Shown: positions 25,538 through 59,360 of the stretch, piece by piece | How the letters are laid out: the number at the start of each line of letters is the position of its first letter | How positions within the stretch are numbered: position 1 is the first letter of the stretch | The notes under the pieces: model-generated | What the model saw: only the letters and a program-made list of their open reading frames with translations | Told to the model about the DNA's origin: nothing | The model's database searches: none | Made by a program: the position numbers and the translations under genes | Assembly: GCA_035605035.1 (NCBI GenBank) | Contig: DATNHI010000106.1 | Span: 849-64,848, forward strand | Length of the DNA stretch: 64,000 nt | Direction of reading: 5' to 3' | DNA from: Verrucomicrobiia bacterium | GTDB lineage: Bacteria > Verrucomicrobiota > Verrucomicrobiia > Limisphaerales > UBA11358

Positions 25538-25658
25538 GTGCAACTTATAGCACCCGCCGAAACGGAAATCGCACAAGAAAAAAGACACGGATTTCAACGA
25601 TTTGCACGAATGGAAACCGCGCAAAGCCGGTAGATGATCATTCGTGTAATTCGTGTCT

Positions 25659-37518: not shown

Positions 37519-38199
37519 ATGAAAGTGACTTACTACGGTCACGCTTGTTTTTCCGTGCAAGTAAAAGAGCGCACGCTGCTATTCGACCCGTTCATTTCCG
37601 GCAACCCGCTCGCCGATGGCATTGACGTAAAAAAGGTGCCGGCGGATTTCATTCTCGTTTCGCACGGCCACGATGACCATCTTGACGACGCGGTCGCAAT
37701 TGCCAAACGCACCCACGCGCTGGTGATTGCGAATTTTGAGGTCGCCAACTGGCTCGAACAACACGGCGCGCCGCGGGTGCACGCGCTGAATCATGGCGGC
37801 GGCTTTCAATTCGATTTTGGCCGCGCCAAATTCGTCAATGCCGTCCATTCCAGCACAATGCCCGATGGCGCCAATGGCGGAAACGCCGGCGGCTTTGTCG
37901 TCGAGAGCGCCGAGGCGAATTTTTATTACTCCGGCGACACCGCTTTGACGTTGGACATGAAACTCATTGGCGAATCCACAAAGTTGAAATTGGCCGTCCT
38001 GTGCATCGGCGACAATTTCACGATGGGGCCGGACGACGCGGTCAAAGCTGCCGGGTTTGTGCGCTGCGACGAAATCCTCGGTGTGCATTACGACACCTTC
38101 CCGCCCATCCGGATTGACCATGCCGCCGCGCAGGAAAAATTCAGGGCTGCCGGAAAGAACCTGCATCTGCTGCGCATCGGCGAGACGCGCGATTTCTAG
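37519..38199 (+). CDS. UPF0173-type metallo-beta-lactamase-fold hydrolase
   Basis: MKVTYYGHACFSVQ...LLFDPFISGNP...LVSHGHDDH. Confidence 0.75.
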   Translation: MKVTYYGHACFSVQVKERTLLFDPFISGNPLADGIDVKKVPADFILVSHGHDDHLDDAVAIAKRTHALVIANFEVANWLEQHGAPRVHALNHGGGFQFDFGRAKFVNAVHSSTMPDGANGGNAGGFVVESAEANFYYSGDTALTLDMKLIGESTKLKLAVLCIGDNFTMGPDDAVKAAGFVRCDEILGVHYDTFPPIRIDHAAAQEKFRAAGKNLHLLRIGETRDF

Positions 38200-39326
38200 T
38201 TATTCGGGTCCACGATGTGCAGGTCAATGCCCGGCGCGTGGTGGAGGAAAAATTGCAACACATTCGGGCGCGTGAATTGCCACCAGCGCCGTTCCGTCGT
38301 ACCCAGCACGACGAGACGGACGCTGTTTTCGCGGCAGAATTTCAGCAGGGCTTCACAAATATTCTCGCTTTCCAGAATGGTGACGCTGCCGCCCAGTTCC
38401 GTTGCCAACTGGACGTTTTGCATGAATTGTCGCTGCAAATCCGACGGAATGCGTATCGGGTCCTCCTTTTTACGGCGGACGTAAACGGCAATCCATTCGC
38501 GATTCAACCGCCCCGCGATGCGCGACGCCGTCCGCAGGAGTTTCGCCGTCGTGACGGGATTGGTGCTGATGAACACCGCGACTTTCTCGCCCACCTCGGC
38601 CGGCAACGCCGTGCCGGCGCGCGGTCGGCGGTCAAGCGCGGCGGCGGTTTCGCGCAACGCCAGCTCGCGCAGGGTGTTCAAATTGTTCTCTGTGAAAAAA
38701 TTCTCGAGCGCGGCCGCGGCGCGGTCGGCGGGGTAAATTTTCCCCAGCTTCAACCGCTCGCGCAATTCCTCGGCCGTCAGGTCAATGTTCACAATCTGGT
38801 CGGCCTCCAGCACAAAACGGTCGGGCACACGCTCGCGCACGTCCACGCCCGTCGCCCGCAGCACCGTGTCGTGCAGGCTTTCCAGATGCTGGATGTTCAT
38901 GGCCGTGATGACATTGATGCTCGCCAGCAGCAGGTCATGCACTTCGAGGTAACGTTTGGGATGTTGCGAGCCGGCAACATTTGTGAACGGTAATTCGTCA
39001 ATGATGCAAACCGTCGGATACCGTTTGAAGATGGCGTCCACGTCGAGCACCTCAACCGTGGTGTTGCCGTGCGGCACTTTTTTGCGGGGAATAATTTCCA
39101 GACCTTCGAGCAACGGCTCCGTTTCCTTGCGCCCGTGCGTTTCAATCCAGCCGATGACCACGTCCACGCCCGCTTTTTTGAGGCGATGCGCCTCCTCCAG
39201 CATCGCGTAGGTTTTGCCGACCCCCGCGGCGTGCCCGAGATAAATCTTCAACTTTCCCAGCCGGCTCTTTTCGATGAGCCGCAGGAAATCTTCCGGCTTC
39301 AAGCGGGGCGCGGCGGGCGGTTCCAC
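38196..39326 (-). CDS. kdpD: short KdpD: KdpD N-terminal sensor domain plus USP-like domain, no TM or histidine-kinase part
   Basis: GKLKIYLGHAAGVGKTYAMLEEAHRLKKAGVDVVIGWIETHGRKET...CIIDELPFTN. C-terminal USP-like KVAVFISTNP...RLVVLG. Ends at 376 aa. Confidence 0.8.
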   Translation of the reverse strand: MEPPAAPRLKPEDFLRLIEKSRLGKLKIYLGHAAGVGKTYAMLEEAHRLKKAGVDVVIGWIETHGRKETEPLLEGLEIIPRKKVPHGNTTVEVLDVDAIFKRYPTVCIIDELPFTNVAGSQHPKRYLEVHDLLLASINVITAMNIQHLESLHDTVLRATGVDVRERVPDRFVLEADQIVNIDLTAEELRERLKLGKIYPADRAAAALENFFTENNLNTLRELALRETAAALDRRPRAGTALPAEVGEKVAVFISTNPVTTAKLLRTASRIAGRLNREWIAVYVRRKKEDPIRIPSDLQRQFMQNVQLATELGGSVTILESENICEALLKFCRENSVRLVVLGTTERRWWQFTRPNVLQFFLHHAPGIDLHIVDPNN

Positions 39327-39476: not shown

Positions 39477-40559
39477 TTAATGTTTTTTAAGTCTTAACCA
39501 TCGCGTGAACAGACAGCCCAAACCCATCAAACAGAGTAGCAGGACTGACCAGTAAGCAAGTCTTGTGTATTTATGAGGCGGTGGGAAAGCGATCACTTTT
39601 TTTGCGAGATGCAGGGTTTCCCTTTCACCTTGCAGAGCCAAACTGTGATATGCACCCACCGAAATAGTTATCACGTTTGTCAAACCGGATGGTATTGCAA
39701 TGGTTCCACCCCAGCCTCTGCCCCATGCAACTAAAGTCCCATCCGACTTGAGGGCTAGACGATGCTGTTCTCCAGCGGCGATTGACACAACATTCGTCAA
39801 ATCCGCTGGGGGTGTGACCTCGCCAAAATTTACATCATGTCCCCAACCCACTACGCGACCGTCAGATTTAAGCGCCAAGCAGTAATGAATTCCGGCTGCG
39901 ATTGCCACCACATTGGTCAAATCGGCTGGAACATTTGTCTGTCCGTATGAGTTATCACCCCAAACGACGACTGTGCCGTTCGACTTCAATGCCATGCTGT
40001 GTTCACCGCCACCGGCGATTGCCACCACATTCGCCAAATCCGGCGGCACTCTGGTTAGATTGGCATTTCCGGGCAATCTGCCTCCCCAGCATACAACTGT
40101 GCCATCCGATTTTAACGCAAGGCTGTGATAATAACCCGCTGCTATGGCGATTACGTTAGTCAGGTTTGCTGGCACTTCAATTTCATCATCACCATCGTAG
40201 CCCCAACCTATAACTGTGCCATCGTCCTTCAGTGCAAGACAGTGCCATTCTCCGGCGGCAATGGCTGTGACGTTCGACAAACCTTCTGGCGTTTTTACCG
40301 GAAAAATGCCACCACCGCCAAGACAAGCTCCCCACGTAATAACCGTCCCATCATTTTTTAACGCCAAGTTGTGACGTAAACCCGCTGCAATGGCGACGAC
40401 GTTGGTTAAGCCCACCGGCACACTTAACTCGCCGAATCCGGCATTCTGTCCCCAAGCCATGATCTGGTTGGCCGGATGAACGAGCGTCTGCATGCTCAAA
40501 TAGAAAATAACGGACAAACAGAACCTGCCAGCACATCGCTGGACTGAAACAGTTTTCAC
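39477..40559 (-). CDS. RCC1-repeat beta-propeller protein with signal peptide and C-terminal TM anchor
   Basis: Repeats of the type NVVAIAAG..H.LALKSDGTVV.WG. C-terminal WSVLLLCLMGLGCLFTRW. AT-richer than flanks. Confidence 0.8.
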   Translation of the reverse strand: MKTVSVQRCAGRFCLSVIFYLSMQTLVHPANQIMAWGQNAGFGELSVPVGLTNVVAIAAGLRHNLALKNDGTVITWGACLGGGGIFPVKTPEGLSNVTAIAAGEWHCLALKDDGTVIGWGYDGDDEIEVPANLTNVIAIAAGYYHSLALKSDGTVVCWGGRLPGNANLTRVPPDLANVVAIAGGGEHSMALKSNGTVVVWGDNSYGQTNVPADLTNVVAIAAGIHYCLALKSDGRVVGWGHDVNFGEVTPPADLTNVVSIAAGEQHRLALKSDGTLVAWGRGWGGTIAIPSGLTNVITISVGAYHSLALQGERETLHLAKKVIAFPPPHKYTRLAYWSVLLLCLMGLGCLFTRWLRLKKH

Positions 40560-40588
40560 CGTGAAATGTTAATCCTGCTGTTGCCGGT

Positions 40589-41893
40589 TTGGGAATCCCA
40601 ATTTTCGTCTGGCTTTGGCCTTTCTTGAAGTTTAAACATCGAAGACAGATGAAAATCATTCCATTGGCGGCAACCCTTTTCTGCGGATTATTTTTCATTG
40701 ATGAGAATGCACACGCACAAACCAACTTGGAATGTATTGGGCACGTCAACGATTCACCATGGGGGGCATTTGATGTGGCGGTTGCCGGGCATTATGTGTT
40801 CCTTGCAAACGGCAGTGATGGTCTCCGAATCTACGATGTATCAACCCCAACAAATCCCATCTGCGTCGGACATGCGAAGGACGGAGGGGTTGGCGCAAGC
40901 GCAATGGGAGTAGCATTATTCGGTGATTATGCCTACATCGCCAACAGCAACGACGGAATGCGTATCTACGATGTTTCCGATCCAACTCACCCGATTAACG
41001 TAGGACGCAGCCCTGAAATCGCCTCCCCAGCAGCTTCATTTGGCATAGCGATTTCTGGTGTGCAACAGCACAGGGCTTTTGCACCCATCCGGTCATGGCT
41101 GTTCGGAAAGCGTAAGTCAGGAGCACGGTATGCCTTCCTAGCAAACTACAATGATGGACTGCGAATCTACGATGTTTCCAATCCCGCCAAACCAAAGCGT
41201 ATTGGCCGTGTGAACGACGGCGGCACAGCTCTTTATGCGGCTGTGTCTGGAAAATACGTATTTCTGGCGAACGACTATGACGGGCTACGGGTATATGACG
41301 TTTCTAATCCCGCCAGTCCGACCAACGTCGCAAGGGTCAAAGATATGGGTTATCCGTGGGGAGTGGCCGTCGCTGGGAAATACGCCTATGTTGCAGACAA
41401 TTTTTACGGCTTTTCAATTTTTGATATTTCTGACGTGACACATCCGGTCGGCGTGGGACATATCAATGACAGTCCACCGCCTCTGTCATTTATTGAAGCT
41501 CATTCGCATACGACCAATAGCAAAACTCACATTGACGGCTCCGCATACGGCATAGCCGTTGCGGGTAATCATGCGTATCTTGCTAATTTTGGCGATGGGG
41601 TTCGGGTTTATGATATTTCCAATCCGACGAACCCAATTAACATCGCGCACACGGCCACAAACTATCAGGGATTCTCAAAGAGAATCGCCGTATCGAGGGG
41701 CTTCGCTTTTGTTGCTAACGCAAATGACGGACTCCGAATTTACAAAGTGTGGGATGACACTCCAACCGCGTCGGAATTTCCTGTTTACACTTTCGCAGTC
41801 ATCGCCCTGAGTTTAATTTTGATTGTGGTCGCAATATCAATCTGGCGATTCAAAGTCAGTTCAGCAAAGCACGAAGCCGACAATTCTTCATAA
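40589..41893 (+). CDS. LVIVD-repeat beta-propeller protein with signal peptide and C-terminal TM anchor
   Basis: Repeats YVFLANGSDGLRIYDVSTPTNP / YAYIANSNDGMRIYDVSDPTHP and similar. Likely start 40649 (MKIIPLAATLFCGLFF). C-terminal FAVIALSLILIVVAISIW. Confidence 0.8.
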   Translation: MGIPIFVWLWPFLKFKHRRQMKIIPLAATLFCGLFFIDENAHAQTNLECIGHVNDSPWGAFDVAVAGHYVFLANGSDGLRIYDVSTPTNPICVGHAKDGGVGASAMGVALFGDYAYIANSNDGMRIYDVSDPTHPINVGRSPEIASPAASFGIAISGVQQHRAFAPIRSWLFGKRKSGARYAFLANYNDGLRIYDVSNPAKPKRIGRVNDGGTALYAAVSGKYVFLANDYDGLRVYDVSNPASPTNVARVKDMGYPWGVAVAGKYAYVADNFYGFSIFDISDVTHPVGVGHINDSPPPLSFIEAHSHTTNSKTHIDGSAYGIAVAGNHAYLANFGDGVRVYDISNPTNPINIAHTATNYQGFSKRIAVSRGFAFVANANDGLRIYKVWDDTPTASEFPVYTFAVIALSLILIVVAISIWRFKVSSAKHEADNSS

Positions 41894-42097: not shown

Positions 42098-42760
42098 TCA
42101 TTTGCCAGCCAGACTGTCAAGCGCGAAGTTCAATGTCATGATGTTCACGCGCGGCTCGCCGAAAACGCCGAGGTCGCGGCCATTCGTGTTTTGTTGAACG
42201 AGTTCGCGGACGCGTGCTTCCGACAGGCCGCGCGCCCTGGCCACGCGCGGAACCTGCAACTCCGCGTTGGCCACGCTGATGTGCGGGTCAAGGCCGCTGC
42301 CGGAAGCGGTTGCGGCATCGGCGGGAACGATGGCATTGGTTGCGAGGCCGTTGTCGGAACGGCAGGTGGCAATGTTCTGCGTGACGTTGGCGACCAGATT
42401 GGATGAGGTCGGGCCGAGATTGCTGCCGCCGGAATGCGTCGCGTCAAAATTGTTCACGCTCACCGCAGATGTTGGATCGCCTGCGCTCGCCGCCGACGGA
42501 CGCGGATGAAAATATTGCGCGCCGGTGAAATTTTGCGCAAGCATTGCCGAGCCGCGCACCCCGCCGGAACGGTCATGCAGCAAACTGCCGTTGGCCTGGT
42601 TCGGGAACAGCAATTGCGACACTCCAAAAACAACGAGTGGATAGAGACCGCACAAAATGACGGCGAAAAAAAGTGTCGCCACCAGCGACCGGCCGAATTC
42701 AGTCAAAATGGTTTTCATAAATTTTTTGCAGGAGACGACGTGAGGAGTCTCATTTTTCAA
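42098..42760 (-). CDS. kdpC: K+-transporting ATPase subunit C
   Basis: Typical KdpC: TM helix then ...GSNLGPTS...SGSGLDPHIS...NFALD. Likely start 42718 (MKTILTEF). Confidence 0.9.
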   Translation of the reverse strand: MKNETPHVVSCKKFMKTILTEFGRSLVATLFFAVILCGLYPLVVFGVSQLLFPNQANGSLLHDRSGGVRGSAMLAQNFTGAQYFHPRPSAASAGDPTSAVSVNNFDATHSGGSNLGPTSSNLVANVTQNIATCRSDNGLATNAIVPADAATASGSGLDPHISVANAELQVPRVARARGLSEARVRELVQQNTNGRDLGVFGEPRVNIMTLNFALDSLAGK

Positions 42761-42799: not shown

Positions 42800-44812
42800 T
42801 CATGCCAGATGCAGACCCGCGACGATCAGGTCAATGAATTTGATGCCGATGAACGGCAGGATGACGCCCCAGAGGCCGTAAATCAGCAGGTTGATGCGCA
42901 GGATTTGCACCGCGCCGAGCGGGCGGAACTTCACGCCGCGCAGCGCCAGCGGAATCAGTGCGATGATGATGAGCGCGTTGAAAATCACGGCGCTCAAAAT
43001 CGCGCTGTCCGGGCTGTGCAATTTCATGACGTTCAACGGCGCAATGACCGGAAAGGTCACCATCAGCATCGCCGGGATGATGGCGAAGTATTTCGCCACG
43101 TCGTTGGCGATGCTGAAGGTCGTCAGTGCGCCGCGCGTGATGAGCAATTGCTTCCCGATTTCGATGATTTCGAGCAGCTTCGTCGGATTCGAGTCCAGGT
43201 CCACCATGTTGCCGGCTTCCTTGGCGGCTTGCGTGCCGGTGTTCATGGCCACGCCGACATCGGCCTGCGCGAGCGCGGGCGCGTCGTTCGTGCCGTCGCC
43301 AATCATCGCAATCATCCGGCCGCCCTGTTGTTCCTGGCGGATCAACGCCAGTTTGTCCTCCGGTCTCGCCTCGGCGAGAAAATCGTCCACGCCCGCCTCC
43401 TGCGCGATGGCGGCGGCGGTGAGCTTGTTGTCGCCGGTAATCATCACGGTGCGGATGCCCATCGCGCGAAAGCGTTTGAAGCGGTCGGACAGCCCGCCCT
43501 TGACGATGTCTTTCAAATGAATCACGCCGAGCACGCGCTGACGCGTCGCGACGACGAGCGGCGTGCCGCCGGAAAGAGAAATGGTTTCAACCATTTCTTC
43601 AATTTCCGCCGGCAGTTTCCCGCCAACGAACTGGCGGATTGAATTGGCCGCGCCTTTGCGAATTTGTTTGCCTTCGAGATTCACGCCGCTCATGCGCGTT
43701 TGCGCGGTGAATGGCACAAATTGCGCGTTTGGCAACTCGTGAATCGTCCGCGCGCGGATGCCGAATTGTTTGGCGAGCACGACGATGCTGCGGCCCTCGG
43801 GCGTTTCGTCCGCGAGCGACGCAAGTTGTGCGGCGTCGGCCAATTCCCGTTCGGTCACGCCGGGCGCGGGCAGAAAGGCGACGGCCTGCCGGTTGCCGAG
43901 CGTGATAGTGCCCGTCTTATCGAGCAGCAGAACATCCACGTCGCCAGCGGCCTCGACCGCGCGTCCACTCATCGCCAGCACATTGCGCTGGAGCAGACGG
44001 TCCATGCCGGCGATGCCGATGGCGCTCAATAAACCGCCGATGGTCGTCGGAATCAAACAAACCAGTAGCGCGATGAGCACGGCGTTGGAGAAAATCGTCC
44101 CGGAGTAAATGCCGAACGGCTTCAGCGTCACAACCGCGAGCAAAAAGACGACCGTGAGCGCGGCGAGCAAAATCGTGAGCGCGATTTCGTTCGGTGTCTT
44201 CTGACGGCTCGCGCCTTCGACGAGGGAAATCATGCGGTCGAGAAAGCCTTCGCCGGGATTGGCGGTGATGCGGATTCTGATTTCGTCGGAGAGCACGCGC
44301 GTGCCGCCGGTGACGGCGCTGCGGTCGCCGCCGGCTTCGCGGATGACCGGCGCGGATTCGCCGGTAATCGCGGATTCATCTACCGTCGCCGCGCCGAGAA
44401 CAATTTCGCCATCGGCGGGAATGATTTCCATGGCATGCACGACCACGATATCGCCTTTGCGCAGCGAATCGGCATCCACGACTTCAATCCGGTCGCCGGA
44501 AATTTTATTGGCGCTGGTTCGCGTGCGGGTGGCGCGCAGCGCCTTGGCCTGCGCCTTGCCGCGGCCCTCGGCGACGGCTTCGGCGAAATTCGCGAACAGC
44601 ACGGTGAACCAGAGCCAGAGTGCGATTTGGGCGACAAACAGGGTCTGGCCGGGCGAGCGAAAGGCGTCCACGGTGCTGATGGCCGCGCCGACCAGCGTGA
44701 CGAACATGACGGGATTTTTCACCATCAGCCGCGGGTTCAGTTTTTTGAACGCGTCGCCGATGGCGGGCCAGAGAATTTTGGAATCAAAGACGGAAACGGC
44801 TTTCGTTTGCAT
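42800..44812 (-). CDS. kdpB: K+-transporting P-type ATPase subunit B
   Basis: DKTGTIT phosphorylation motif, [16 protein letters not shown]. Confidence 0.95.
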
Positions 44813-44815: not shown

Positions 44816-46615
44816 TTAAAACAGGGTTCCTTTCAGCATCAGAAAATGTTCGACAATCGGGCCGAGCGTGAGCGCGGGCAAAAAAGTCAACGCACCGACG
44901 AGAATCACTGTGCCGACGAGCAGCACGACGAAGGTGATGCCGGTCACCGGAAACGTGCCGGCGCTGGCGGGAACGATTTTTTTGCGCGCCAGCGACCCGG
45001 CGAGCGCGAGCAGCGGCACGATCATGCCGAACCGGCCGAGCAGCATGTCAAAGCCGAGCGTCGTGTCGTACCACGGCGTGTTGGCGTTGAGGCCGGCGAA
45101 GGCGCTGCCGTTGTTGCCCGCGCCGGAGGTGTAGGCGTAGAGCATTTCGCTCAAGCCGTGCGGGCCGTTGTTGTTCAAGCCGGCCTTGCCCCAATCGCTT
45201 ACCGACGCCCAGGCCGTGAACCCGAGAATGATGAACGCGAGAATGACGAACGCCAGCAGCGTCATCTTCACGTCGTAGGCCTCGATCTTTTTGCCGAGAT
45301 ATTCCGGCGTGCGCCCGACCATCAGCCCGGCGATGAACACGGCGAGGATGACAAAAATCAACATGCCGTAAAGCCCCGCGCCGACGCCGCCGAAAATCAC
45401 CTCACCGGTCTGGATGTTGAACATCGGCACCAGCCCGCCGAGCGGCGTGAAGGAATCGTGCATGGAATTGACCGCGCCGCAGGAGGCGTCGGTCGTCACC
45501 GTGGCGAACAGCGCGGAATCGAAGATGCCGAAGCGGACTTCCTTGCCTTCCATGTTACCGTCGGCGACGGCGACGCCGAGTTGCTGATGAATCGGATTGC
45601 CGCGCGCCTCTGCCCACGAGCAAACGAGGACGCCAGCGAGAAACATGACGAACATCGCCGACCAGACCGCCCAGCCGTGTTTTTGATTTTTCGTTTCGCG
45701 GCCGAGGTGATACGTCAGCGCGCTGCCGATGCAGAGGAGCGCCAGCATCTGGAAAAAGTTCGAGAGCGGCGTGGGATTTTCAAATGGATGCGCGGCGTTG
45801 GCGTTCGTGTAACCGCCGCCGTTGGTGCCGAGCATCTTAATGGCCATCTGCGACGCCATCGGGCCTTGCACGATGGTCTGCGTGTCGAGCGTCTGGTTAA
45901 CCATGACTGGATTGCCCTTGGCGTCCACGACCGGTTTGCCGTTCGCGTCGGTTTTTTGGACAGAAACGGTTTGCGGCTCGATGAGCTTGGCGACGGTGTA
46001 AGGTTTGAAATTCTGAATCATGCCCTGCGACACGAAGAACAGCGCCAGCACGAGGCAAATCGGCAGGAGCAGATAATAAATGATGCGCGTGAGGTCCACC
46101 CAGAAGTTGCCGATGGTCTGCGCCGTGTGCCGCGCGATGCCGCGCACGAGCGCGCCGGCGATGGCGATGCCGACGGCGGCGGAAAAAAAGTTTTGGCTGG
46201 CCAGCGCGACCATTTGCGAGAAATACGACATCGTGGATTCGCCGCCGTAGCTCTGCCAGTTGGTGTTCGTGGTAAAGCTGACGGCGGTGTTGAACGCGAG
46301 ATGTTGAGCCAGCGCGCCGAGTTTTTGTGGATTGAGCGGCAGAAATTGCTGCAACCGCAGAATGGCGTAGGTGAAAAGACAGCTCACGAGGCTGAACAGC
46401 AGCATCGCAAACGCGTATTGCTTCCAGCCGTGTTCCTTCGCCGGATCCACGCGCAAGACGCGGTAGGTGAATTTTTCGAACGGGCGCAAAACCGGGTCGA
46501 GCCAGGTGCGACCGTTGGGATTGAGCACGCGGTTGATATACAAACCGAGTGGCTTGGTGACGAGCACGAGCGCGCCGATGTAAAGCGCGAGCTCCAACCA
46601 TTGATGGGCGTTCAT
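44816..46615 (-). CDS. kdpA: K+-transporting ATPase subunit A
   Basis: MNAHQWLELALYIGALVLVTKPLGLYI...TNTNWQSYGGE...LGTNGGG. Confidence 0.95.
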   Translation of the reverse strand: MNAHQWLELALYIGALVLVTKPLGLYINRVLNPNGRTWLDPVLRPFEKFTYRVLRVDPAKEHGWKQYAFAMLLFSLVSCLFTYAILRLQQFLPLNPQKLGALAQHLAFNTAVSFTTNTNWQSYGGESTMSYFSQMVALASQNFFSAAVGIAIAGALVRGIARHTAQTIGNFWVDLTRIIYYLLLPICLVLALFFVSQGMIQNFKPYTVAKLIEPQTVSVQKTDANGKPVVDAKGNPVMVNQTLDTQTIVQGPMASQMAIKMLGTNGGGYTNANAAHPFENPTPLSNFFQMLALLCIGSALTYHLGRETKNQKHGWAVWSAMFVMFLAGVLVCSWAEARGNPIHQQLGVAVADGNMEGKEVRFGIFDSALFATVTTDASCGAVNSMHDSFTPLGGLVPMFNIQTGEVIFGGVGAGLYGMLIFVILAVFIAGLMVGRTPEYLGKKIEAYDVKMTLLAFVILAFIILGFTAWASVSDWGKAGLNNNGPHGLSEMLYAYTSGAGNNGSAFAGLNANTPWYDTTLGFDMLLGRFGMIVPLLALAGSLARKKIVPASAGTFPVTGITFVVLLVGTVILVGALTFLPALTLGPIVEHFLMLKGTLF

Positions 46616-46624: not shown

Positions 46625-46708
46625 CTAAAATTTTTCCGGTTTAAGCATGGCGACAATGAGATAAACACAAAGCGCCACGGAAATAATTCCAAGGATGAGA
46701 TTTTCCAT
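46625..46708 (-). CDS. kdpF: K+-transporting ATPase subunit F (27 aa)
   Basis: Not in ORF track (too short). Hand translation MENLILGIISVALCVYLIVAMLKPEKF* has the KdpF-type hydrophobic helix and a PEKF end. Sits 9 nt upstream of kdpA. Confidence 0.8.
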   Translation of the reverse strand: MENLILGIISVALCVYLIVAMLKPEKF

Positions 46709-46719: not shown

Positions 46720-46803
46720 TCAGAGCTTTTGGCAACCGACGACATACAGCAAAAAAGCCATAAAAGCGCCACAAACCAATCCGATATAGATTGCGTCCAA
46801 CAT
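46720..46803 (-). CDS. second 27-aa hydrophobic peptide immediately upstream of kdpF
   Basis: MLDAIYIGLVCGAFMAFLLYVVGCQKL*, between the riboswitch candidate and kdpF. ORF only. Confidence 0.3.
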   Translation of the reverse strand: MLDAIYIGLVCGAFMAFLLYVVGCQKL

Positions 46804-46894
46804 AATTTTGTCAACGGCCGCGTCAATGCACATGCCGCAATTGATTTTCACGTTGGGTGAACTTGATGACCGCGGACTTCGCGGTTCAGAGGCT

Positions 46895-47045
46895 CGCCCT
46901 TCCAAATGCCTGCGAGATTAGCTGTCGGGCTTGGCCTTGAAAGTGGCCCGGTGATTCCGTTGCCGGAACCCCTGCGCCCCGTCCTCAACTTTGAGGAATT
47001 TGGGTCTCCCGCATCGGCTTGCAGGAAGGCAAACCGATTTAGGCT
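46895..47045 (-). promoter_or_regulatory. ydaO/yuaA-type (c-di-AMP) riboswitch candidate upstream of kdpFABC
   Basis: Minus-strand RNA AAAUCGGUUUGCC..GAUGCGGGAGACCCAAAUUCC...GACGGGGCGCAGGGGUUCCGG...GCCCGACAGCUAAUCUCGCAGGC. Matches remembered conserved blocks GCGGGGGACCCA, GGGGUGAAUCC and CCCGUCAGCUAACCUCGUAAGCG. Confidence 0.65.
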
Positions 47046-47110
47046 GCAACGGCCAAAGTTAATCACAGCTTCCAAAGTTTGTCAACTCCGCCGCAAACGG
47101 GCTGTTTTTA

Positions 47111-48688: not shown

Positions 48689-48693
48689 CGGTT

Positions 48694-49126
48694 TTGGAAG
48701 GGCTGTAAGCCGAATTCTGTCTTCACCCTTGCGGATGGAGAGAACCATTTGTCTCAGCAGCCGATACCCGGAACCCGTCCCGCGTTGGCGGGACCGGAGC
48801 GGGCCGCTCCGGAGTTCCCTATTTGGCCTTGCACCCGATGGGGTTTTCCGTGCCGCGTCGCTTGCGCTTCGCGCGGTGGTCTCTTACACCACCTTTTCAC
48901 CCTTGCCCCTCTGAAATTTCAAATTTCAAATTTGAGATTCCAAAGCGGCGGTCTGTTTTCTGTGGCACTGTCCGTCGGGACGGCTCGCGCCGCCGCCGCC
49001 CGCGTGTATCCTCTGAAATCTCAAATCCGAAATTTGAAATTCCAAAAGGTTACGCGGCATCGCGCCCTTTGGTGTTCGGACTTTCCTCTGCCGGCTCGCG
49101 CCGGCGGCGATTCTCCGCCCTTCCAA
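48694..49126 (-). ncRNA. rnpB: RNase P RNA, bacterial type A
   Basis: Minus-strand GGAAGGGCGGAGAAUCGCC...CAGAGGAAAGUCCGAACACCAAAGGGCGCGAUGCCGCGUAAC...CAGUGCCACAGAAAACAGACCGCC...AAGGGUGAAAAGGUGGUGUAAGAGACCACC...GCAAGGCCAAAUAGGGAAC...GACAGAAUUCGGCUUACAGCCCUUCC. P1 closes with GGAAGGGC/GCCCUUCC. Confidence 0.9.
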
Positions 49127-49280: not shown

Positions 49281-50984
49281 ATGGCTGAAAAAGACGATTA
49301 TCTGTTGGACTTGCTGGTGGACCTCGGCTCCGTGAATGCCGAACAGGTCGCCGCCGCCCGCCAGGAGGCGCAAACCGCCGGCGTGGGCGTGGTGGACCTG
49401 TTGCTGGCCAACAAAGTTATCCGGCCCGCCGATGTCACCCAGGCCAAGGCCGCGCAATTCGGCGCGGAGGTCGTCCAGCTCGCCAGCCTGCGGATCCCCG
49501 ACGAAGTCATTTCCGTCATTCCCCGCCACATCGCCAAAAAATACCGCGTCGTCCCCATTATGAAAAGCGATGGCAAGGTCGCCGTGGCCATCGCCGACCC
49601 GTCGGATCTGAATACGATTGATTCACTGACCCACCTGCTGAACGCGGAAATCGAACTCCGCGTGGCTTCGGAGCAGGACATTGAAAACGCGCTGGGGCGG
49701 TATTATGGCGGCAAGGGAGACTCGGTGGTGGACAAGGCAATCCAGGAACTGACCCAAAGCGAAGTCGAAGTGCCCGTCGGCGACATGGGCGATGACAGCT
49801 CGGTGGTGGACGCGGACGCGCCGCTCATCCGGTTGGTGAACCAGATCATCGCCGACGCGTTCAAGATGCGCGCCTCGGACATTCATCTGGAGCCATTGGG
49901 CAAGCGCTTCCGGCTGCGCTACCGCATTGACGGTTTGCTGCACGAAATGAAGGCGCCGCCCAAACGGCTGCAGGCGTCCATCATCACGCGGCTGAAAATC
50001 CAGTCGAACATGTCCATCTCCGAGCACCGCATCCCGCAGGATGGGCGTATCCAGTCCAAAGTGGGCAACAAGTTCATTGACCTCCGCGTATCGTGTTTGC
50101 CGACGAACCACGGCGAAAGCATCGTGATGCGTATCCTGGACAAGGAAGGGTTGCGGCTCGGTCTCGGAGAACTCGGTTTTTTCACGGACGACCAGCAAAC
50201 TTTTGAAAGGTTGATCGGCCTGCCCGACGGCATATTGCTGGTGACCGGCCCGACCGGTTCCGGCAAAACGACGACGCTTTATTCCTGCCTGCACTTTATC
50301 AACCGACCGGACCGGAAAATCATCACCGTCGAAGACCCGGTGGAATATATTTTGGGCGGCATCAACCAGGTCCAGGTCAATGAAGTCGTCGGCCTTACCT
50401 TTGCCGCCGCGTTGCGCTCGATATTGCGCCAGGCGCCGAACGTCATCATGATCGGTGAAATTCGCGACCTCGAAACCGCGTCCATTGCCATCAACGCATC
50501 GCTGACCGGCCATTTGGTCTTCTCCACGCTGCACACCAACGACGCGCCGAGCGCTGTCGCCCGCCTGATTGACATCGGCGTGAAGCCCTTTTTGGTCGCA
50601 TCGTCCACGCGTTCACTCATGGCGCAACGCCTCGTCCGCAAGGTTTGCAAAAAATGCGCGGCGCCCTATCAAGCCACCGAAGCCGAGATGAGCGCGCTGA
50701 GTCTCACCCTGGACAACATGAAGGACGCCCACCTGCAGAAAGGGCGCGGCTGCAGTGATTGCTCGAACACCGGCTGCCGCGGACGGTTTGGCATTTTTGA
50801 AATTTTCGTCGTTGACGACGAGGCGCGGAAATTGATTTACGACCGGGCACCGTCGTCCGCGTTGCGCGCACGCGCCCGGGAAATGGGCATGCGGACGCTG
50901 CGCGAGGACGGCATCCGCAAAGTGCTCGCCGGCCTGACCACGCCCGAAGAGGTCATCCGGGCAACCATTGGGGACGAAGCGTGA
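49281..50984 (+). CDS. GspE/PilB-family secretion ATPase with N-terminal MshEN/T2SSE_N domain (copy 1)
   Basis: Walker A GPTGSGKTTTLY, Asp box, MIGEIRD, His box, tetracysteine CKKC...CSDC. Confidence 0.9.
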   Translation: MAEKDDYLLDLLVDLGSVNAEQVAAARQEAQTAGVGVVDLLLANKVIRPADVTQAKAAQFGAEVVQLASLRIPDEVISVIPRHIAKKYRVVPIMKSDGKVAVAIADPSDLNTIDSLTHLLNAEIELRVASEQDIENALGRYYGGKGDSVVDKAIQELTQSEVEVPVGDMGDDSSVVDADAPLIRLVNQIIADAFKMRASDIHLEPLGKRFRLRYRIDGLLHEMKAPPKRLQASIITRLKIQSNMSISEHRIPQDGRIQSKVGNKFIDLRVSCLPTNHGESIVMRILDKEGLRLGLGELGFFTDDQQTFERLIGLPDGILLVTGPTGSGKTTTLYSCLHFINRPDRKIITVEDPVEYILGGINQVQVNEVVGLTFAAALRSILRQAPNVIMIGEIRDLETASIAINASLTGHLVFSTLHTNDAPSAVARLIDIGVKPFLVASSTRSLMAQRLVRKVCKKCAAPYQATEAEMSALSLTLDNMKDAHLQKGRGCSDCSNTGCRGRFGIFEIFVVDDEARKLIYDRAPSSALRARAREMGMRTLREDGIRKVLAGLTTPEEVIRATIGDEA

Positions 50985-51150
50985 GCAGTGGAATGCGTCC
51001 TTGACCAAATCAGTCCAAATGCGAATCTCCCGGCAAAAATTTTCACGTCCTGGCGCGCAACGATTCAATGCGCGCCCGGTCAAATCTGTGACCGACATGA
51101 TTCATGCGGCCGCTGTAGCCTGTTTAACGATTTAACCATTTAACGAACTC

Positions 51151-52266
51151 ATGTCTTACTCCATGTCTGATTTACTACAGTTGGTGGTGGCCGAAGGCGC
51201 CTCCGACCTGCACATCCGCGTTGGCACGCCGCCGGTCATCCGCGTGCACGGCATCCTGCACCGTGTCGAAGGCCCGTCGCTCAAGCCGGAGGACACCGAG
51301 GAATTAATGCGCAGCATCACCTCCGAGGAGCATATCCAGGGCACGCGCGAACGTGGCGGCGCGGACTTCGGGTTCGCGTTCGGCGAGGTGGCGCGCTTCC
51401 GTGTGAGCGTTTTCAAGGAGAAAGGCAATTTCGGCATCGTGCTCCGGCAAATTCCCAGCAAACTTCTGACAATGGAGGAAATCGGAATTCCGCCGAGCGC
51501 GAAGGAACTGCTCTACAAACCGCGCGGCCTGGTGTTGGTGACCGGCCCGACCGGTTGCGGCAAGACCACCACCCTCGCCACGATGATCAATATCATCAAC
51601 GAAGAACGGGACGAGGCACACATCATCACCATCGAAGACCCCATCGAATATTATCACAAGCACAAACGGGCGCTGATTACCCAGCGCGAGATCGGCGTGG
51701 ACGTGCCGAATTTTGCCGAGGGCCTGCGCCGCGCGTTGCGCCAGGACCCGGACGTGGTGCTGGTCGGCGAAATGCGCGACCTGGAGACGATTGACGCCGC
51801 CATCACCGCGGCGGAAACCGGGCACCTGGTCTTCGGCACGCTGCACACGACCGGCGCGGCCAAGACGATTGACCGCATCGTCAACGCCTTTCCGAACAAC
51901 CAGCAGGAACAGATTCGCATCCAGCTTTCGACGGTCCTCCAGGCGGTCATTTCGCAATTGCTGCTGCCGCGCATTGACAAGCCGGGGCGCGTGGCCGTTT
52001 TTGAAATCATGATCAACACACCGTCCATTTCCGCGCTCATCCGCGACAACAAAACGTTCCGCGTCCAGTCGGACATCCAGACCGGCGCCAAGTACGGGAT
52101 GGTGACGCTCGATTCGTTCCTGATTGACAAATATCTGCAAGGCCTGATCGCGCGCGAGGAAGTCATTACCAAGGCGCAGGACCCGACGACGATTCAACAG
52201 AAATTGCAGGAATTGGAACTGGCCCAGGCCACCGGCTCCGACACCGGGCCCAAATCAAAGGGCTGA
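51151..52266 (+). CDS. pilT: PilT-type twitching motility (retraction) ATPase
   Basis: [19 protein letters not shown]...[12 protein letters not shown]...[11 protein letters not shown]...[10 protein letters not shown]. Confidence 0.9.
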
Positions 52267-52276
52267 CCTTTTTCCC

Positions 52277-53983
52277 ATGGCCGAAGAAATTTCCAGTCCA
52301 TTGCTGTCGCTCATCAAGGAGCGGGAGCTGATTGACGACTTGCAATACGAAGAAGTCGTTGCCGAACTGAAGCGCACTGGCGCGCCTGTGATTGAGGTCC
52401 TGCAGGACTTCGGCGTCATGAAGCTCGACGACATCCTGCACGTGATGGCCGCCAACCTCGGCACCGAGGTCGTGTCGTTGCGCGACCGGGAATTTCCTCC
52501 CGCGCTGGTGCAGACGATTCCCGCCAAAGTCGCCCGCATGTATCACTGCGTCCCCGTCGCCTTGAAAGGCTCGACGGTCCAGGTGGCGCTGGCGGACCCG
52601 CTCGACCCGGCGCAGGCCGACGAAATCCAGTTTGCCGCCAAACAGGACGTGCAGGTGGTCGTGGCCGACCCCGCCGAAATCGAGAAGACCCTCGACCGGC
52701 TTTACGGCGCGGACGAAAGCGAAACCTTTTCGGAGATTCTCAAGGAGCTGGGCGCCGACACGGAAATCGCGCGCGAAGCCAGCGAGGCTGACGCCGACGA
52801 TGAAAAGCGCATGACCGAACTGGCCAACGAGGCGCCCATCGTAAAATTCGTCAATCTCGTGTTGCAACAGGCCATTCAGGACCGTGCGAGCGACATTCAT
52901 TTCGAGCCGTTCGAGACGGAATTTCGCATCCGTTACCGCGTGGACGGCGCGCTTTACGAAATGTCCCCGCCGCCCAAGCACCTGGCGTTGCCGGTCATTT
53001 CGCGCCTGAAAGTCATGGCCAACCTGAACATTTCCGAACGGCGCCTGCCGCAGGACGGCCGCATCAATTATGCGGTGGGGAACCGCCAGATTGACCTGCG
53101 CGTGTCCACGCTGCCGACGCAATTCGGCGAATCGCTGGTGTTGCGCGTGCTCGACCGTTCGGCGGTGAACCTGGAACTGGAATCGCTGGGCCTGCCCAAG
53201 CACGTGCAGGAATTCATGAAAGAGGTGATTCAACGGCCCAACGGCATTGTCATCGTCACCGGGCCGACCGGTTGCGGAAAAACGACGACGCTGTATTCCT
53301 GTCTGCGCCGCGTCAACGCGATTGACTCCAAGCTGCTCACGGCGGAAGACCCGGTCGAATATGACATCGAGGGCATCATGCAGGTGGCCATTCATGAGGC
53401 GGTCGGCATGACGTTCGGCAAGGCGCTGCGGTCATTTTTGCGCCAGGATCCGGACATCATCATGGTGGGTGAAATGCGCGACCTGGAAACCGCGCAGATT
53501 TCGATCCAGGCGTCGCTGACCGGCCACCTGGTGATGAGCACGCTGCACACGAACGATTCCGCGGGCGCGGTCACGCGTATGATTGACATGGGCGTCGAGC
53601 CGTTTTTGATTTCCTCGACCCTGATGGCCGTGCTGGCCCAGCGGCTCGTGCGGGTCATTTGCAAGAATTGCCAGACGCCCTTTGAGCCGACGGAGGACCA
53701 GTTGGCGCTGTTGAATCTTTCGCCGCATGATTTGGGCGACAAGGTGTTTCATTACGGGCGCGGCTGCTCGAACTGCAACGACACCGGCTACAAGGGCCGG
53801 AAAGGTATTTTTGAATTGCTCATCATCAACGAACCTATTCGCGCCCTCATCAACGAACGCGCGCCGACGGTGGTGTTGCGGCAGAAAGCCATCGAATTGG
53901 GCATGGTGACCTTGCGCGAAGACGGCTTGCGCAGCATCTTTGAAGGTGATACAACCATCGAGGAAGTCGTCAAATATACTTAA
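52277..53983 (+). CDS. GspE/PilB-family secretion ATPase with N-terminal T2SSE_N domain (copy 2)
   Basis: [23 protein letters not shown]...CSNC. Same architecture as copy 1. Confidence 0.9.
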
Positions 53984-53988
53984 CCGCT

Positions 53989-55290
53989 ATGCCGAAATTC
54001 AATTACGTGGCCCTGGACGCCCGCGGCAACGAAACGAAGGGCAGCCTGGACGTCGCCACTCAGAACGAGGCCATTGGCCGTGTCAAGGAGATGGGCCTGT
54101 TCCCGACCAAAATCGCCGAGGCTGAAAAAGTCCAGGAAAAGCAGGCCGGCCGGAAGGCGAAGACCGGCGGCAAAAAAGGCGGCGGCGGCGCGCTGAATAT
54201 CCAGATCAAAATCCCCGGTCTCAGCGGCCGGGTAAAACAAAAAGTGTTGACGGCCTTCACCCGGCAACTGGCGACGCTGGTGGATGCCGGCCTGCCCCTC
54301 CTGCGCGGGTTGCGCGTCCTCGAAAAACAGGAGCGCAACGCGGCGCTCAAAACCATCATCGGCGAACTGGCCCTGGCGATCGAGGGGGGCAGCACTTTTT
54401 CCGAGGCGCTGGCGCAACATCCCAAAACCTTCAATCGTCTGTACGTGAACATGGTCAAGGCGGGCGAGCTGGGCGGCGTGCTGGAAGTGGTCTTGAAACG
54501 ACTGGCCGAATTCGCCGAAAAAGCGCAGAAGATCAAAGGCAAGATCAAGGCCGCGCTGTTTTATCCGGTGGCCGTGATGATTGTCGCCACCGGCATCCTG
54601 ATTCTGCTGATGACCTTTGTCGTGCCCCGGTTCAAGGAAGTCTTTGCCGGCATGGATGTCACCATGCCGAGATTCACGCTCATCGTGCTTGCGATCAGCG
54701 ACGCCATCCGGCACCACATTCTGCCAACCCTGGGCGGCTTGGCGGTGGCCTGGGTATTGTTGCTTCTGTTTCTCAAGACCAAAGTGGGCCGGCTCATGTG
54801 GGACAAATTCAAACTCAAGATGCCCGCCATCGGGCCGGTCATCAGCAAGGTGGCCATTTCCCGTTTCACCCGCACGCTTGGCACCCTCGTCAGCAGCGGT
54901 GTCCCCATTTTGCAGGCGTTGACCATCGTCAAAGAGACCGCCGGCAACATTGTCATCAGCAATGCCGTCGCCAAGGTCCATGAAAGCGTGAAGGAAGGTG
55001 AAACGATAACCGCGCCCCTGGAAAGTTCGGCGGTCTTTCCGCCAATGGTGGTCAGCATGGTGGACGTCGGTGAACAAACCGGCGCCTTGCCGGAAATGCT
55101 CCTGAGAATCGCCGACAATTACGAAGAAGAAGTGGACAACGCCGTCGCTGCCATGACCTCCCTGCTGGAACCGATCATGATCGTCGCTCTGGCGTTTATC
55201 GTCGGCAGCATCGTCATCGCCATGTTCCTGCCGTTGATCGCCATGATTACCCAGATGAGCGGCGGCGGCGGTGCCGGTGGTGAAGATTAA
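53989..55290 (+). CDS. pilC: GspF/PilC-family inner-membrane platform protein
   Basis: Duplicated T2SSF regions (FTRQLATLVDAGLPLL.. / FTRTLGTLVSSGVPIL..) and three TM segments. Confidence 0.9.
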   Translation: MPKFNYVALDARGNETKGSLDVATQNEAIGRVKEMGLFPTKIAEAEKVQEKQAGRKAKTGGKKGGGGALNIQIKIPGLSGRVKQKVLTAFTRQLATLVDAGLPLLRGLRVLEKQERNAALKTIIGELALAIEGGSTFSEALAQHPKTFNRLYVNMVKAGELGGVLEVVLKRLAEFAEKAQKIKGKIKAALFYPVAVMIVATGILILLMTFVVPRFKEVFAGMDVTMPRFTLIVLAISDAIRHHILPTLGGLAVAWVLLLLFLKTKVGRLMWDKFKLKMPAIGPVISKVAISRFTRTLGTLVSSGVPILQALTIVKETAGNIVISNAVAKVHESVKEGETITAPLESSAVFPPMVVSMVDVGEQTGALPEMLLRIADNYEEEVDNAVAAMTSLLEPIMIVALAFIVGSIVIAMFLPLIAMITQMSGGGGAGGED

Positions 55291-55339
55291 TCCACGACCG
55301 AGCCAAAAGGGCCTTGTTTCCAGGCCGGAAACAAAAGTG

Positions 55340-55385
55340 TTGACAAAATGCGACGCCCGTGCGTAAATACAATGTAATCACATTG
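55340..55385 (+). promoter_or_regulatory. promoter candidate plus palindromic operator for the BrnT/BrnA-like pair
   Basis: ttgaca, 18-nt spacer, taaata, immediately followed by caatgt-aatc-acattg. Confidence 0.4.
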
Positions 55386-55415
55386 CATGGGCGTTTTATT
55401 TACAATTAGCCCGTT

Positions 55416-55709
55416 ATGGAGTTTGATTGGAATAATCCGCCCTTTGAAATGGGTGGTTCTTTGACTCAGCGGGAAATTGAAGAGTCCTTTGAGGATCCGT
55501 TTGCCATCCGGCTGTTGCCCGACTCGCCGCGTTTCGGCGTTCAGGCCCGGTTCTTCAATCTGGGCATGACGGCGGGCGGCGCCGGCGTTTTCAGCGCCTA
55601 TCGGACCAATGGCCGGTTGATCCGGGTTTTGCACGCCCGCGAATTTGACCCGGAAGAACGGTTTTTTTACCAGCGCAAACTGGACCAGACGCTGACGGGT
55701 GAGAAGTGA
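55416..55709 (+). CDS. BrnT/DUF497-like putative toxin
   Basis: MEFDWNNPPF...EIEESFEDPFAIRLLPD...GRLIRVLHAREFDPEERFFY follows the DUF497 pattern. Confidence 0.6.
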   Translation: MEFDWNNPPFEMGGSLTQREIEESFEDPFAIRLLPDSPRFGVQARFFNLGMTAGGAGVFSAYRTNGRLIRVLHAREFDPEERFFYQRKLDQTLTGEK

Positions 55710-55712
55710 CCA

Positions 55713-55798
55713 ATCTGGGGTTTGGGGTCTTGGGTCTGGGGTCCGGGTGCTGAAATCGGTCAGCCCCGGAACCGAGACGCCAGAACCCAGGCCCAAAC
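55713..55798. repeat. heptad-periodic inverted repeat between the toxin and antitoxin genes
   Basis: tctggggtttggggtcttgggtctggggtccggg ... ccccggaaccgagacgccagaacccaggcccaaac. Confidence 0.75.
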
Positions 55799-55803
55799 TT
55801 GAC

Positions 55804-56079
55804 ATGCGAACCTTTGCCAACTGGGAAGACGTGCCGCTCTTCGACAGCGAAGCGGCCGAGGCGAGCTTCTGGTCGGAGAACCGGCCGGACTTGCGCCTGA
55901 TGGAGGCGGCCACCGCCGGGAACGCGGAAGCCTCCGAATCCGTGACCATCACGCTGCGGATGGACCCGCGGATGCTGGCGCGCATCAAGCGGGTGGCCCG
56001 GACCCGCTATTTGAATTATCAGAGTATGATCAAGCAATGGTTGAGCGAACGGATGGAAGACGAACTGCGTGAAAAATAA
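55804..56079 (+). CDS. BrnA/CopG-type putative antitoxin
   Basis: FDSEAAEASFWSENRPDL...ITLRMDPRMLARIKRVARTRYLNYQSMIKQWLSERME matches the CopG-antitoxin pattern (..FW..; I.IRL; YQSLIK.WL.ERL). ATG 55804 preferred over ORF track 55699. Confidence 0.65.
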   Translation: MRTFANWEDVPLFDSEAAEASFWSENRPDLRLMEAATAGNAEASESVTITLRMDPRMLARIKRVARTRYLNYQSMIKQWLSERMEDELREK

Positions 56080-56871
56080 GTGAACGCCATGAAGACGAAA
56101 TCTCGAATGTCGAATGCCCAATGCCGGACTGAAAAGCGAGGCCGTCGCGATTTTGTCATTCGTCATTCGACATTCGACATTCGTGCCTTCACCCTCATCG
56201 AACTGCTCACCGTCATGGCCATCATCGCCGCGCTGGCGGCGTTCCTGTTCCCCGTGGTGGGGCGCATCAAGCGGCAGCAATACATCAAGAACGCGACGGC
56301 GGAAATGGAACAGTTGGAGACGGCCCTTGACCGCTACAAGGCCGCCTACGGCTTCTACCCGCCGGACAATCCATGCAACCCCTTGGTCAACCAGCTCTAC
56401 TTTGAACTGTTGGGAACGACCAATTTGGCTGTTCCTCCTGCCGCGCCGTTCTATCAATCGCTTGACGACCCCACCGTGCAACTCAAGCAATCCGACTTTG
56501 CCAATGCTTTCGGCACCATGGCCGGGAACAATTGCGTGAGCGGTTTTATGAATTGCAGCAAGCCCGGTTCGAGCGAGGACACGCCCAAGGCCCAAAACTT
56601 CCTGCCCAATTTGAGACCCAACCAGACCACCCTCTACAGTAACAACCTTGTCGGGTTAAAATTGATCATCACTTCCGTCAAAGGGCCGGACGTGACGTAC
56701 AAGCCGCTGGGCCTCGGCGCGCCCGACATCAATCCCTGGCGCTACAATTCGTCGAGCCCGACGAACAATCCCGGCGCCTATGACCTGTGGGTCCAACTGG
56801 TAATCAGCGGGAAAACGAATCTCATCTGCAATTGGAACAAGCAAGTGCAATTGAACAGCCCGCTGCCCTGA
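56080..56871 (+). CDS. GspG-like pseudopilin (prepilin-type N-terminal domain)
   Basis: AFTLIELLTVMAIIAALAAFLFPV then AEMEQLETALDRYKAAYGFYPPDN. True start uncertain (GTG 56080, ATG 56089 or ATG 56107); all lie in or before the repeat. Confidence 0.75.
   Translation: MNAMKTKSRMSNAQCRTEKRGRRDFVIRHSTFDIRAFTLIELLTVMAIIAALAAFLFPVVGRIKRQQYIKNATAEMEQLETALDRYKAAYGFYPPDNPCNPLVNQLYFELLGTTNLAVPPAAPFYQSLDDPTVQLKQSDFANAFGTMAGNNCVSGFMNCSKPGSSEDTPKAQNFLPNLRPNQTTLYSNNLVGLKLIITSVKGPDVTYKPLGLGAPDINPWRYNSSSPTNNPGAYDLWVQLVISGKTNLICNWNKQVQLNSPLP
56098..56185. repeat. heptad-periodic inverted repeat (cgaatgt / acattcg units) covering the pseudopilin leader region
   Basis: aaatctcgaatgtcgaatgcccaatgccgg ... ttgtcattcgtcattcgacattcgacattcgtg. 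Confidence 0.8.
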
Positions 56872-57118
56872 TTTTTATGTGCACCGCCTCAAAATCCGCA
56901 TTCGACCGCGGCGAACGGCTCCTGGCCGTTGACTGGCAGGATTGCCGTTGGCGCCCGCGCATCGCGGTGCAATCCCGGCAGGGCGAGGCTCCCGACGGGC
57001 CGTTGTCGCGGGCGGTTAAACGGTTGTCCCCGCCGCCGCGCCGCCCGGTTTCCCCACAACCTGACCTTGTTTCTTTCAAAACCATGAAGGCGATGCCGAT
57101 TTTCTCACGCCTCCGCCT

Positions 57119-58549: not shown

Positions 58550-58562
58550 CCGGTTTAATTTT

Positions 58563-59354: not shown

Positions 59355-59360
59355 TCCCCA

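Follow-up and report, generated by a model that had tools for sequence, protein, structure and literature searches.

The kdp operon and its promoter

The window, a stretch of 64,000 nucleotides from a Verrucomicrobiota bacterium, carries on its minus strand a kdp operon in which a very short first cistron is followed by kdpF, kdpA, kdpB and kdpC, with a short kdpD further downstream (the coordinates of these genes and of the leader elements discussed below are given in Table 1). The first three cistrons are tightly spaced, with gaps of 11 nt (27-residue ORF to kdpF) and 9 nt (kdpF to kdpA). The 27-residue peptide has no match in Pfam or NCBIfam; in this lineage it may belong to the Kdp complex as an additional small subunit. 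The closest relatives of the window's KdpA are encoded in Verrucomicrobiota MAGs, at 91% (locus L001) and 86% (locus L027) identity. Two further genes, one for an LVIVD-repeat protein (plus strand) and one for an RCC1-repeat protein (minus strand), occupy 39477..41893, between kdpC and the short kdpD. On the other side of the operon, a GHL10 gene is transcribed divergently from the kdp leader, and beyond it lies a bacterial class A RNase P RNA (49126..48690, minus strand, 224 bits), enlarged by long insertions (44 nt and about 23 nt).

Table 1. Features of the kdp locus and its leader (positions within the window)
Feature	Position	Strand	Evidence and remarks
-35 hexamer TTGACA, kdp leader promoter	47080..47085	-	Conserved spacing in related loci
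-10 hexamer TTAACT, with TGA before it (extended -10)	47057..47062	-	Spacer of 17 nt from TTGACA
Riboswitch aptamer, c-di-AMP (ydaO/yuaA) class	46892..47055	-	Bounds from Rfam RF00379; helices covary in 87 relatives
Extended first hairpin (P2)	47013..47038	-	Stem covaries; loop CCUUCCUG nearly invariant, with CCUUCC at 47029..47024
Hairpin GGCC-ACUUUCAA-GGCC, counterpart of the ydaO pseudoknot-forming hairpin	46933..46948	-	Invariant in 87/87 relatives
3' tail UUGGAAGG, predicted 3' strand of pseudoknot	46898..46905	-	Complementary to hairpin loops
Conserved 3' module	46855..46899	-	GGGCGAGC (46899..46892), CCUCUG, covarying hairpin (46886..46869), CAAGUUCACCC (46865..46855)
Second stem-loop domain	46797..46856	-	CCAACGUGA (46856..46848) pairs with UUAUGUUGG (46805..46797), covering the start codon of the first ORF
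27-aa hydrophobic ORF (MLDAIYIGLVCGAFMAFLLYVVGCQKL), first cistron	46720..46803	-	Protein conserved in L001, L027, L002 and most metagenome loci
kdpF	46625..46708	-	PF09604 at 8.4e-11; TIGR02115 at 1.5e-9
kdpA	44816..46615	-	PF03814, 779.9 bits
kdpB (P-type ATPase; E1-E2 ATPase by Pfam)	42800..44812	-	TGES from residue 150 (serine 153); DKTGT from residue 298
kdpC	42098..42760	-	PF02669, 229.6 bits
Short kdpD, 376 aa, kinase-less	38196..39326	-	PF02702 at 2.1e-85

The promoter ahead of the leader recurs among its relatives. Of 80 related loci, at least 43 have the arrangement of TTGACA, 17 nt and T(T/A)(T/A)AnT, in every case 5-7 nt ahead of the block GUUGCAGCC, and TTGACA is also kept in L001 and L027; because this conserved promoter stands so close to GUUGCAGCC, the aptamer described below is placed at the very 5' end of the transcript. 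Judged from the promoter spacing, transcription would begin near position 47050. With the promoter directly upstream and the kdp operon downstream, the element thus occupies the 5' untranslated region of K+ transport genes. An internal candidate promoter (TTGACG-16-TATGTT, 46826..46799) was taken as a chance occurrence, given that its second hexamer falls on the start region of the ORF and that the stretch upstream of it differs between subclades.

The leader aptamer and its relatives

[quoted passage not shown] All three of the quoted blocks are found on the minus strand, with GCGGGAGACCC(A) at 47012..47002, (G)CCCGACAGCUAAUCUCGCAGGC at 46929..46908, and GGGGCGCAGGGGUUCC between the two. When the whole window was scanned with Rfam cmscan, the c-di-AMP (ydaO/yuaA) family RF00379 was matched over all of its model positions (1-134 of 134) by a segment that encloses the span first proposed. 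The score, 46.7 bits, exceeds the gathering score, which is 38 bits for this family; with the 64-kb window searched against 4227 families, E is 1e-7. A scan of the leader alone improved the E-value to 8.5e-10 and returned no other Rfam family at E <= 1. The conserved core blocks of the two pseudo-symmetric halves were aligned to the model with high posterior probability; one core position departs from the Rfam consensus (GGAGA here, GGGGA in the family), and there are long insertions relative to RF00379 in the first and second hairpins of the aptamer.

We then considered the element in related loci. RF00379 is also matched in L001 (49.6 bits) and L027 (55.1 bits), where the element occupies the corresponding place ahead of kdpA, and was not matched in seven other Verrucomicrobial loci. 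A metagenome scan that used the 3' core block of the aptamer as its search pattern returned at least 119 loci; in about 80 of those listed, a kdpA gene lies approximately 300 nt downstream, encoding a protein 67-96% identical to the window's KdpA. From these data we assembled an alignment (A2) of 87 distinct sequences of this aptamer subfamily. Since 21 of the 22 positions of the search pattern were fixed, helices that involve this block had no freedom to vary and are uninformative; GGCCACUUUCAAGGCC and the loop CCUUCC, by contrast, are invariant independently of the pattern.

RNAalifold, applied to A2, returned the ydaO layout. For the specified structure, 97.3% of cells over the 87 sequences form standard pairs, and 20 pairs have changes on both sides; none of 500 shuffles reached any of the observed covariation measures, and in a control in which the pairing partners were slid by one to three columns just 28-50% of cells were paired. 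The changes on both sides fall in three variable aptamer helices (seven, four and three pairs, respectively) and in the hairpin of the 3' module, whereas four helices are either constant or changed on a single side and are therefore uninformative with respect to covariation. A mutual-information scan, given no structure as input, recovered the same helices as the specified structure. One further candidate, pairing of column 171 with column 184, was discarded by a filter that required 85% or more of the pairs to be canonical.

One of the variable aptamer helices is the stem of the extended first hairpin, P2, in which columns 24-32 of A2 pair with columns 42-50 and seven of the nine pairs have changes on both sides. 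Its loop, CCUUCC, is complementary over 6 bp to GGAAGG in the 3' tail (99.6% of cells paired, with no variation). The hairpin GGCC-ACUUUCAA-GGCC lies outside the search pattern, yet does not vary in any of the 87 relatives, and its loop can also pair with the tail (CUUUCAA with UUGGAAG, 7 bp). Both strands of this predicted pseudoknot are invariant, and the complementarity is thus present without covariation. The construct crystallised as a c-di-AMP aptamer (sequence in PMC5393176) contains CUCCUUC and GAAGGAG, which on our reading of that sequence form the homologous pairing; GGGGCGAA and CCCG.CAGCUAA.CUCGCA are also found in it. Two pyrimidine loops, CCUUCC at 47029..47024 and ACUUUCAA at 46944..46937, are therefore both complementary to the single tail UUGGAAGG (46905..46898, minus strand), the former pairing with it as well as the latter does, and both loops and the tail are essentially invariant in the 87 relatives. 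In one relative, L177, a C to G change in the loop of the first hairpin and a G to U change in the tail leave only the pairing of the CCUUCC loop.

The layout of secondary structure is that of the Bacillus subtilis ydaO (kimA) and ktrAB riboswitches (RF00379; crystal structures 4QLM and 4QLN). Blocks held in common with this class include GCGGG.GA.CC, GGGGCGAA and CCCG.CAGCUAA.CUCGCAGGC, and in both cases the GGCC hairpin has a loop that is complementary to a purine-rich 3' tail. The leader element differs from the B. subtilis examples in two hairpins, which are lengthened by insertions (17 nt and about 25 nt), in its output stage, and in having two loops that would compete for one tail.

Genes other than kdp also follow this aptamer, together with the 3' module described in the next section. 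A 655-residue APC-family permease is found downstream of it in six loci (L107, L108, L117, L177, L182 and L199), a 158-residue membrane protein of no known family in four (L085, L147, L178 and L183) and a 75-residue zinc-ribbon protein in two (L110 and L180). In its architecture the permease appears to us to resemble KimA; a KimA-like permease among the targets fits a K+ regulon, and the B. subtilis ydaO element likewise stands before kimA.

The search for a diadenylate cyclase covered the window and related loci. No DisA_N domain (diadenylate cyclase) was detected by Pfam in the 51 window proteins, and a six-frame search of 2.0 Mb of related loci for the cyclase motif DGA...GxRHxA gave no convincing match. 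An NrnA-like DHH/DHHA1 protein is encoded at 32483..33466 (plus strand), in the gene row nusA, infB, rbfA, NrnA-like gene, truB, ribF, which we take to be the context of the mycobacterial c-di-AMP phosphodiesterase CnpB; this protein is a possible, although not diagnostic, pApA or c-di-AMP hydrolase. For the phylum as a whole, diadenylate cyclases of the DacD class have been reported in Verrucomicrobia (PMC6741144).

Might the element then be a diverged or decaying ydaO-like RNA that has lost c-di-AMP sensing, with another ligand or none, and kdp be controlled in some other way? Such a reading would account for a score just 8.7 bits over the gathering score, for the long insertions in hairpins 1 and 2 and the GGAGA core, and for the lack of a cyclase among the window proteins and in the related loci scanned. 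Against it, a set of 87 distinct sequences, drawn from many samples, shows invariant core blocks and covarying stems, the targets are K+ transporter genes, KdpDE is present instead in relatives that lack the element, GGGGCGAA is common to the crystallised c-di-AMP aptamer, and DAC proteins are known in the phylum; we regard loss of sensing as very improbable. Family membership, covariation, promoter, gene content and the link with a short KdpD described below make us confident that the leader element is a genuine riboswitch of the ydaO class, with c-di-AMP as its predicted ligand and OFF as its probable mode of control of kdp; the class and the target, kdpFABC, are those named in the preliminary description. 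By homology with tested members, high c-di-AMP, as a signal of sufficient K+, would favor folding of the aptamer and its pseudoknot and lower expression of the pump; under K+ limitation c-di-AMP would be low and the operon expressed.

The output stage of the riboswitch

Every member of the subfamily carries the same, nearly invariant 3' module, regardless of the gene downstream. It consists of GCAGGC-AWUUGGAAGGGCGAKCCUCUG, then a hairpin rich in GC, then (N)CAAGUUCACCC and lastly an A-rich stretch. In the window the hairpin reads AACCGCG-AAGUC-CGCGGU (46886..46869), and six of its seven pairs have changes on both sides in the alignment. It had been described before, at 46868-46884, as a downstream hairpin without a U-tract; the hairpin is real, displaced by a few positions from that span, and has no U-tract. 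RNAalifold predicted, unprompted, parts of a second helix in the module, GGGCGA:UCACCC, which is invariant with a fixed C.A mismatch and on which covariation is accordingly uninformative. In the lineage of L177 and L199, GGCG with CGCC stands in place of GGGCGA:UCACCC, an exchange that looks compensatory.

We asked how such a module could pass the state of the aptamer to the genes. The output is not a canonical hairpin-plus-U-tract terminator: a terminator scan found no such site on the minus strand between the aptamer and the first ORF. Nor is there any enrichment of terminator-like sites in the 20 kb of this genome examined, where 32 were counted and 30.7 +- 5.4 are expected from shuffles. 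An intrinsic terminator of the Bacillus thuringiensis type, in which the GC hairpin at 46886..46869 would form when c-di-AMP is bound, has several features in its favor, namely the position of this hairpin directly 3' of the aptamer tail, its covariation in both kdp and non-kdp leaders, the presence of CUUUCAAGUU after it in some relatives, and the fact that this is the mode of the tested Bacillus example (PMC6488665). In the window, however, the stem is followed by GGUCAUCAAGUUCACCC and by no U-tract, the scan passes over it, and canonical sites in this genome are no commoner than in shuffled sequence. Moreover, covariation revealed no alternative partner within the aptamer for the variable bases of the hairpin stem, so that no alternative of the antiterminator type is visible. 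Taken together, these results make an intrinsic terminator at this hairpin improbable.

Purely translational control, in which c-di-AMP binding would occlude the region where the first cistron starts, and coupling would extend the effect to the closely packed cistrons behind it, was weighed against the folding of the region that follows the module. In the window, the second stem-loop domain has a ViennaRNA minimum free energy of -21.5 kcal/mol, with the AUG paired at a probability of 1.0. Its 9-bp helix (CCAACGUGA with UUAUGUUGG) is shared by the window's subclade, where the AUG is likewise paired at a probability of 1.0 and one-sided changes keep the pairing (C-G to U.G, G.U to A-U). These observations speak for translational control, as do the spacing of the first cistrons and the lack of a Shine-Dalgarno sequence to expose. 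The helix over the AUG reaches at least 8 bp, however, in just 19 of 66 distinct relatives and has only 3-4 bp in most others, and a partner-shuffled control does nearly as well (a mean of 4.8 pairs compared with 4.2 in the control). It forms in silico whether the tail is free or blocked, that is, whatever the state of the aptamer, and an identical module precedes genes with unrelated start regions at differing distances. We consider an exclusively translational output unlikely, albeit a little less so than termination at the GC hairpin.

The arrangement that we would put forward instead, tentatively and with rather less than even confidence, is a gene-independent step governed by the tail. 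When ligand is bound, the pseudoknot would capture the tail and so alter the pairing of GGGCG with CACCC; the altered pairing would take effect ahead of the start region that is particular to each gene, by Rho-dependent or otherwise non-canonical attenuation or by processing of the RNA; in the window's subclade the 9-bp helix that hides the AUG would reinforce this effect as a lineage-specific addition. Rho is encoded in the window (25729..27357, plus strand, 542 aa); its first Pfam domain begins at residue 131, leaving approximately 130 residues ahead of Rho_N. A broader proposition is that the 3' module and the extra CCUUCC loop together make up an expression platform that is new and portable, serving c-di-AMP riboswitches of bacteria without canonical terminators. 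The two loops would compete for the tail and thereby set the GGGCG:CACCC pairing, to which Rho, an RNase or the ribosome would respond; this we hold to be doubtful, and less probable than a step governed by the tail as such. The set of about 90 sequences represents a riboswitch with neither a recognisable terminator nor Shine-Dalgarno occlusion, and should be useful for studies of output in little-studied phyla.

Several other pairings and elements were considered for the module and rejected. Invasion of the aptamer core by GUUCACCC via GGGGCGAAC amounts to 7 bp in the main subtype and is lost in the GCGCAG subtype to which the window belongs. For pairing of GCGAKCCUCUG with the aptamer, the best partners differ by subtype, and the complementarity is probably due to chance. 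A leader peptide starting from a CUG after the Shine-Dalgarno-like GGAAGG was set aside given that the changes in the hairpin are compensatory and that length variation by single nucleotides shifts the frame. Near the start of the permease ORF, UUUGG could pair with CACCCAAA over 5-7 bp, which is too weak and too constrained by coding to be judged.

Short KdpD and comparison with known kdp systems

The KdpD of the window is truncated. In its 376 residues Pfam detects the KdpD N-terminal domain (PF02702) and no HisKA or HATPase domain, and the match to the Usp domain is weak (21.2 bits, under the Pfam cut-off of 24). Among NCBIfam models the top hit is NF038185, 'KdpD-like non-kinase potassium sensor', which scores 345 bits, under that model's cut-off of 550. 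The Walker A (GHAAGVGKT) and Walker B (VCIIDE) motifs are present, and KdpB has the sequence AITGESAP with the target serine of TGES. No response regulator (KdpE) was found among the 51 window proteins scanned. The Usp domain of Staphylococcus aureus KdpD is said to bind c-di-AMP through the motif SXS-X20-FTAXY, reportedly described by Moscoso and colleagues in 2016, to which the window's KdpD, with STN-X21-WIAVY, is just a loose match.

The short KdpD accompanies the riboswitch consistently. Among 14 related riboswitch loci, two of which are cut by the end of the contig, all 12 complete ones have a KdpD frame of about 380-398 residues no more than about 0.8 kb after kdpC, whereas in Verrucomicrobial loci without the riboswitch KdpD is mostly about 890 residues long. 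The preliminary description's suggestion that an RNA layer and a kinase-less KdpD might coexist is thus borne out by the arrangement of genes at these 12 loci. The association runs in one direction only, since a short KdpD is also encoded at eight loci (L011, L018, L022, L024, L033, L037, L063 and L045) that have no RF00379 match at the gathering score and no match to the search pattern. At locus L002, whose KdpA is 88% identical to that of the window, the 27-residue ORF, kdpF and kdpABC are arranged as in the window, behind a different leader that has no aptamer; the same locus (span 1..8904) encodes an 888-residue KdpD and a 236-residue response regulator that reads as OmpR-type (KdpE). The two loci therefore display a swap of regulatory modules between near neighbours. 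Close relatives that carry either module offer a natural comparison for the way in which control of K+ homeostasis is exchanged between lineages.

The proposal under review had cited Bacillus as a precedent for control of kdp by a c-di-AMP riboswitch, and this precedent exists: in B. thuringiensis BMB171, kdpFABC is preceded by a c-di-AMP riboswitch and accompanied by a truncated KdpD, with no KdpE, and in the Bacillus cereus group the riboswitch and KdpDE are mutually exclusive (Wang et al. 2019, PMC6488665). The window resembles the BMB171 locus in the RF00379-class aptamer in the kdpFABC 5' untranslated region, in a KdpD that consists of the N-terminal part only (365 residues there, 376 here), in the absence of an adjacent KdpE or histidine kinase, and in the exclusion, among relatives, between the riboswitch and a complete KdpDE. 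It differs from BMB171 in its Verrucomicrobiota host, in having no intrinsic terminator, in the extended first hairpin with its conserved CCUUCC loop and the invariant 3' module after the tail, and in the 27-residue cistron before kdpF and the two genes between kdpC and the short kdpD. The survey in PMC6488665 placed kdp-linked riboswitches in Bacillales only, and the same paper cites earlier predictions of K+-transporter riboswitches in Verrucomicrobia. The riboswitch in the kdp leader is accordingly a known arrangement, established by experiment in Bacillus, in a new phylum-level occurrence and with a conserved, unusual output module, and its novelty is modest. What the present loci add is that a c-di-AMP riboswitch on kdpFABC combined with a kinase-less KdpD in place of KdpDE extends beyond the Bacillota, to widespread uncultured Verrucomicrobia of soil and peat.

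A role for the short KdpD is suggested by published work on other bacteria. Silberberg et al. (2024, PMC11018627) showed that the N-terminal domain of KdpD acts as a serine kinase and thereby inactivates KdpB; a short KdpD is stimulated by c-di-AMP, and a two-layer model, in which post-translational control of the pump by c-di-AMP is joined in some Bacillota by a riboswitch, has been described (PMC11018627). As far as can be judged by sequence comparison, the window's protein would correspond to the short KdpD of Deinococcus geothermalis treated there, in domain architecture (the weak Usp match aside), in the Walker A and B motifs and in the serine of the KdpB TGES motif. By analogy, the short KdpD, with its N-terminal kinase domain and Usp-like region, would phosphorylate the TGES serine of KdpB at high c-di-AMP. 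In this way c-di-AMP would control both the synthesis and the activity of the pump, and KdpDE would be replaced.

Some features elsewhere in the window, away from the kdp locus, may be recorded here. A single open frame of 737 residues (21909..24122, plus strand) joins a low-molecular-weight phosphatase domain, RpiB and serine hydroxymethyltransferase. Three long ORFs on the minus strand (17470..19185, 19363..21927 and 24116..25684) contain ECF-type sigma-70 regions 2 and 4, with a secretin-like C-terminal fusion in two of them. A type II secretion or type IV pilus cluster occupies 49281..62277 (plus strand), encoding three T2SSE ATPases, one T2SSF protein and four proteins with an N-terminal methylation motif.
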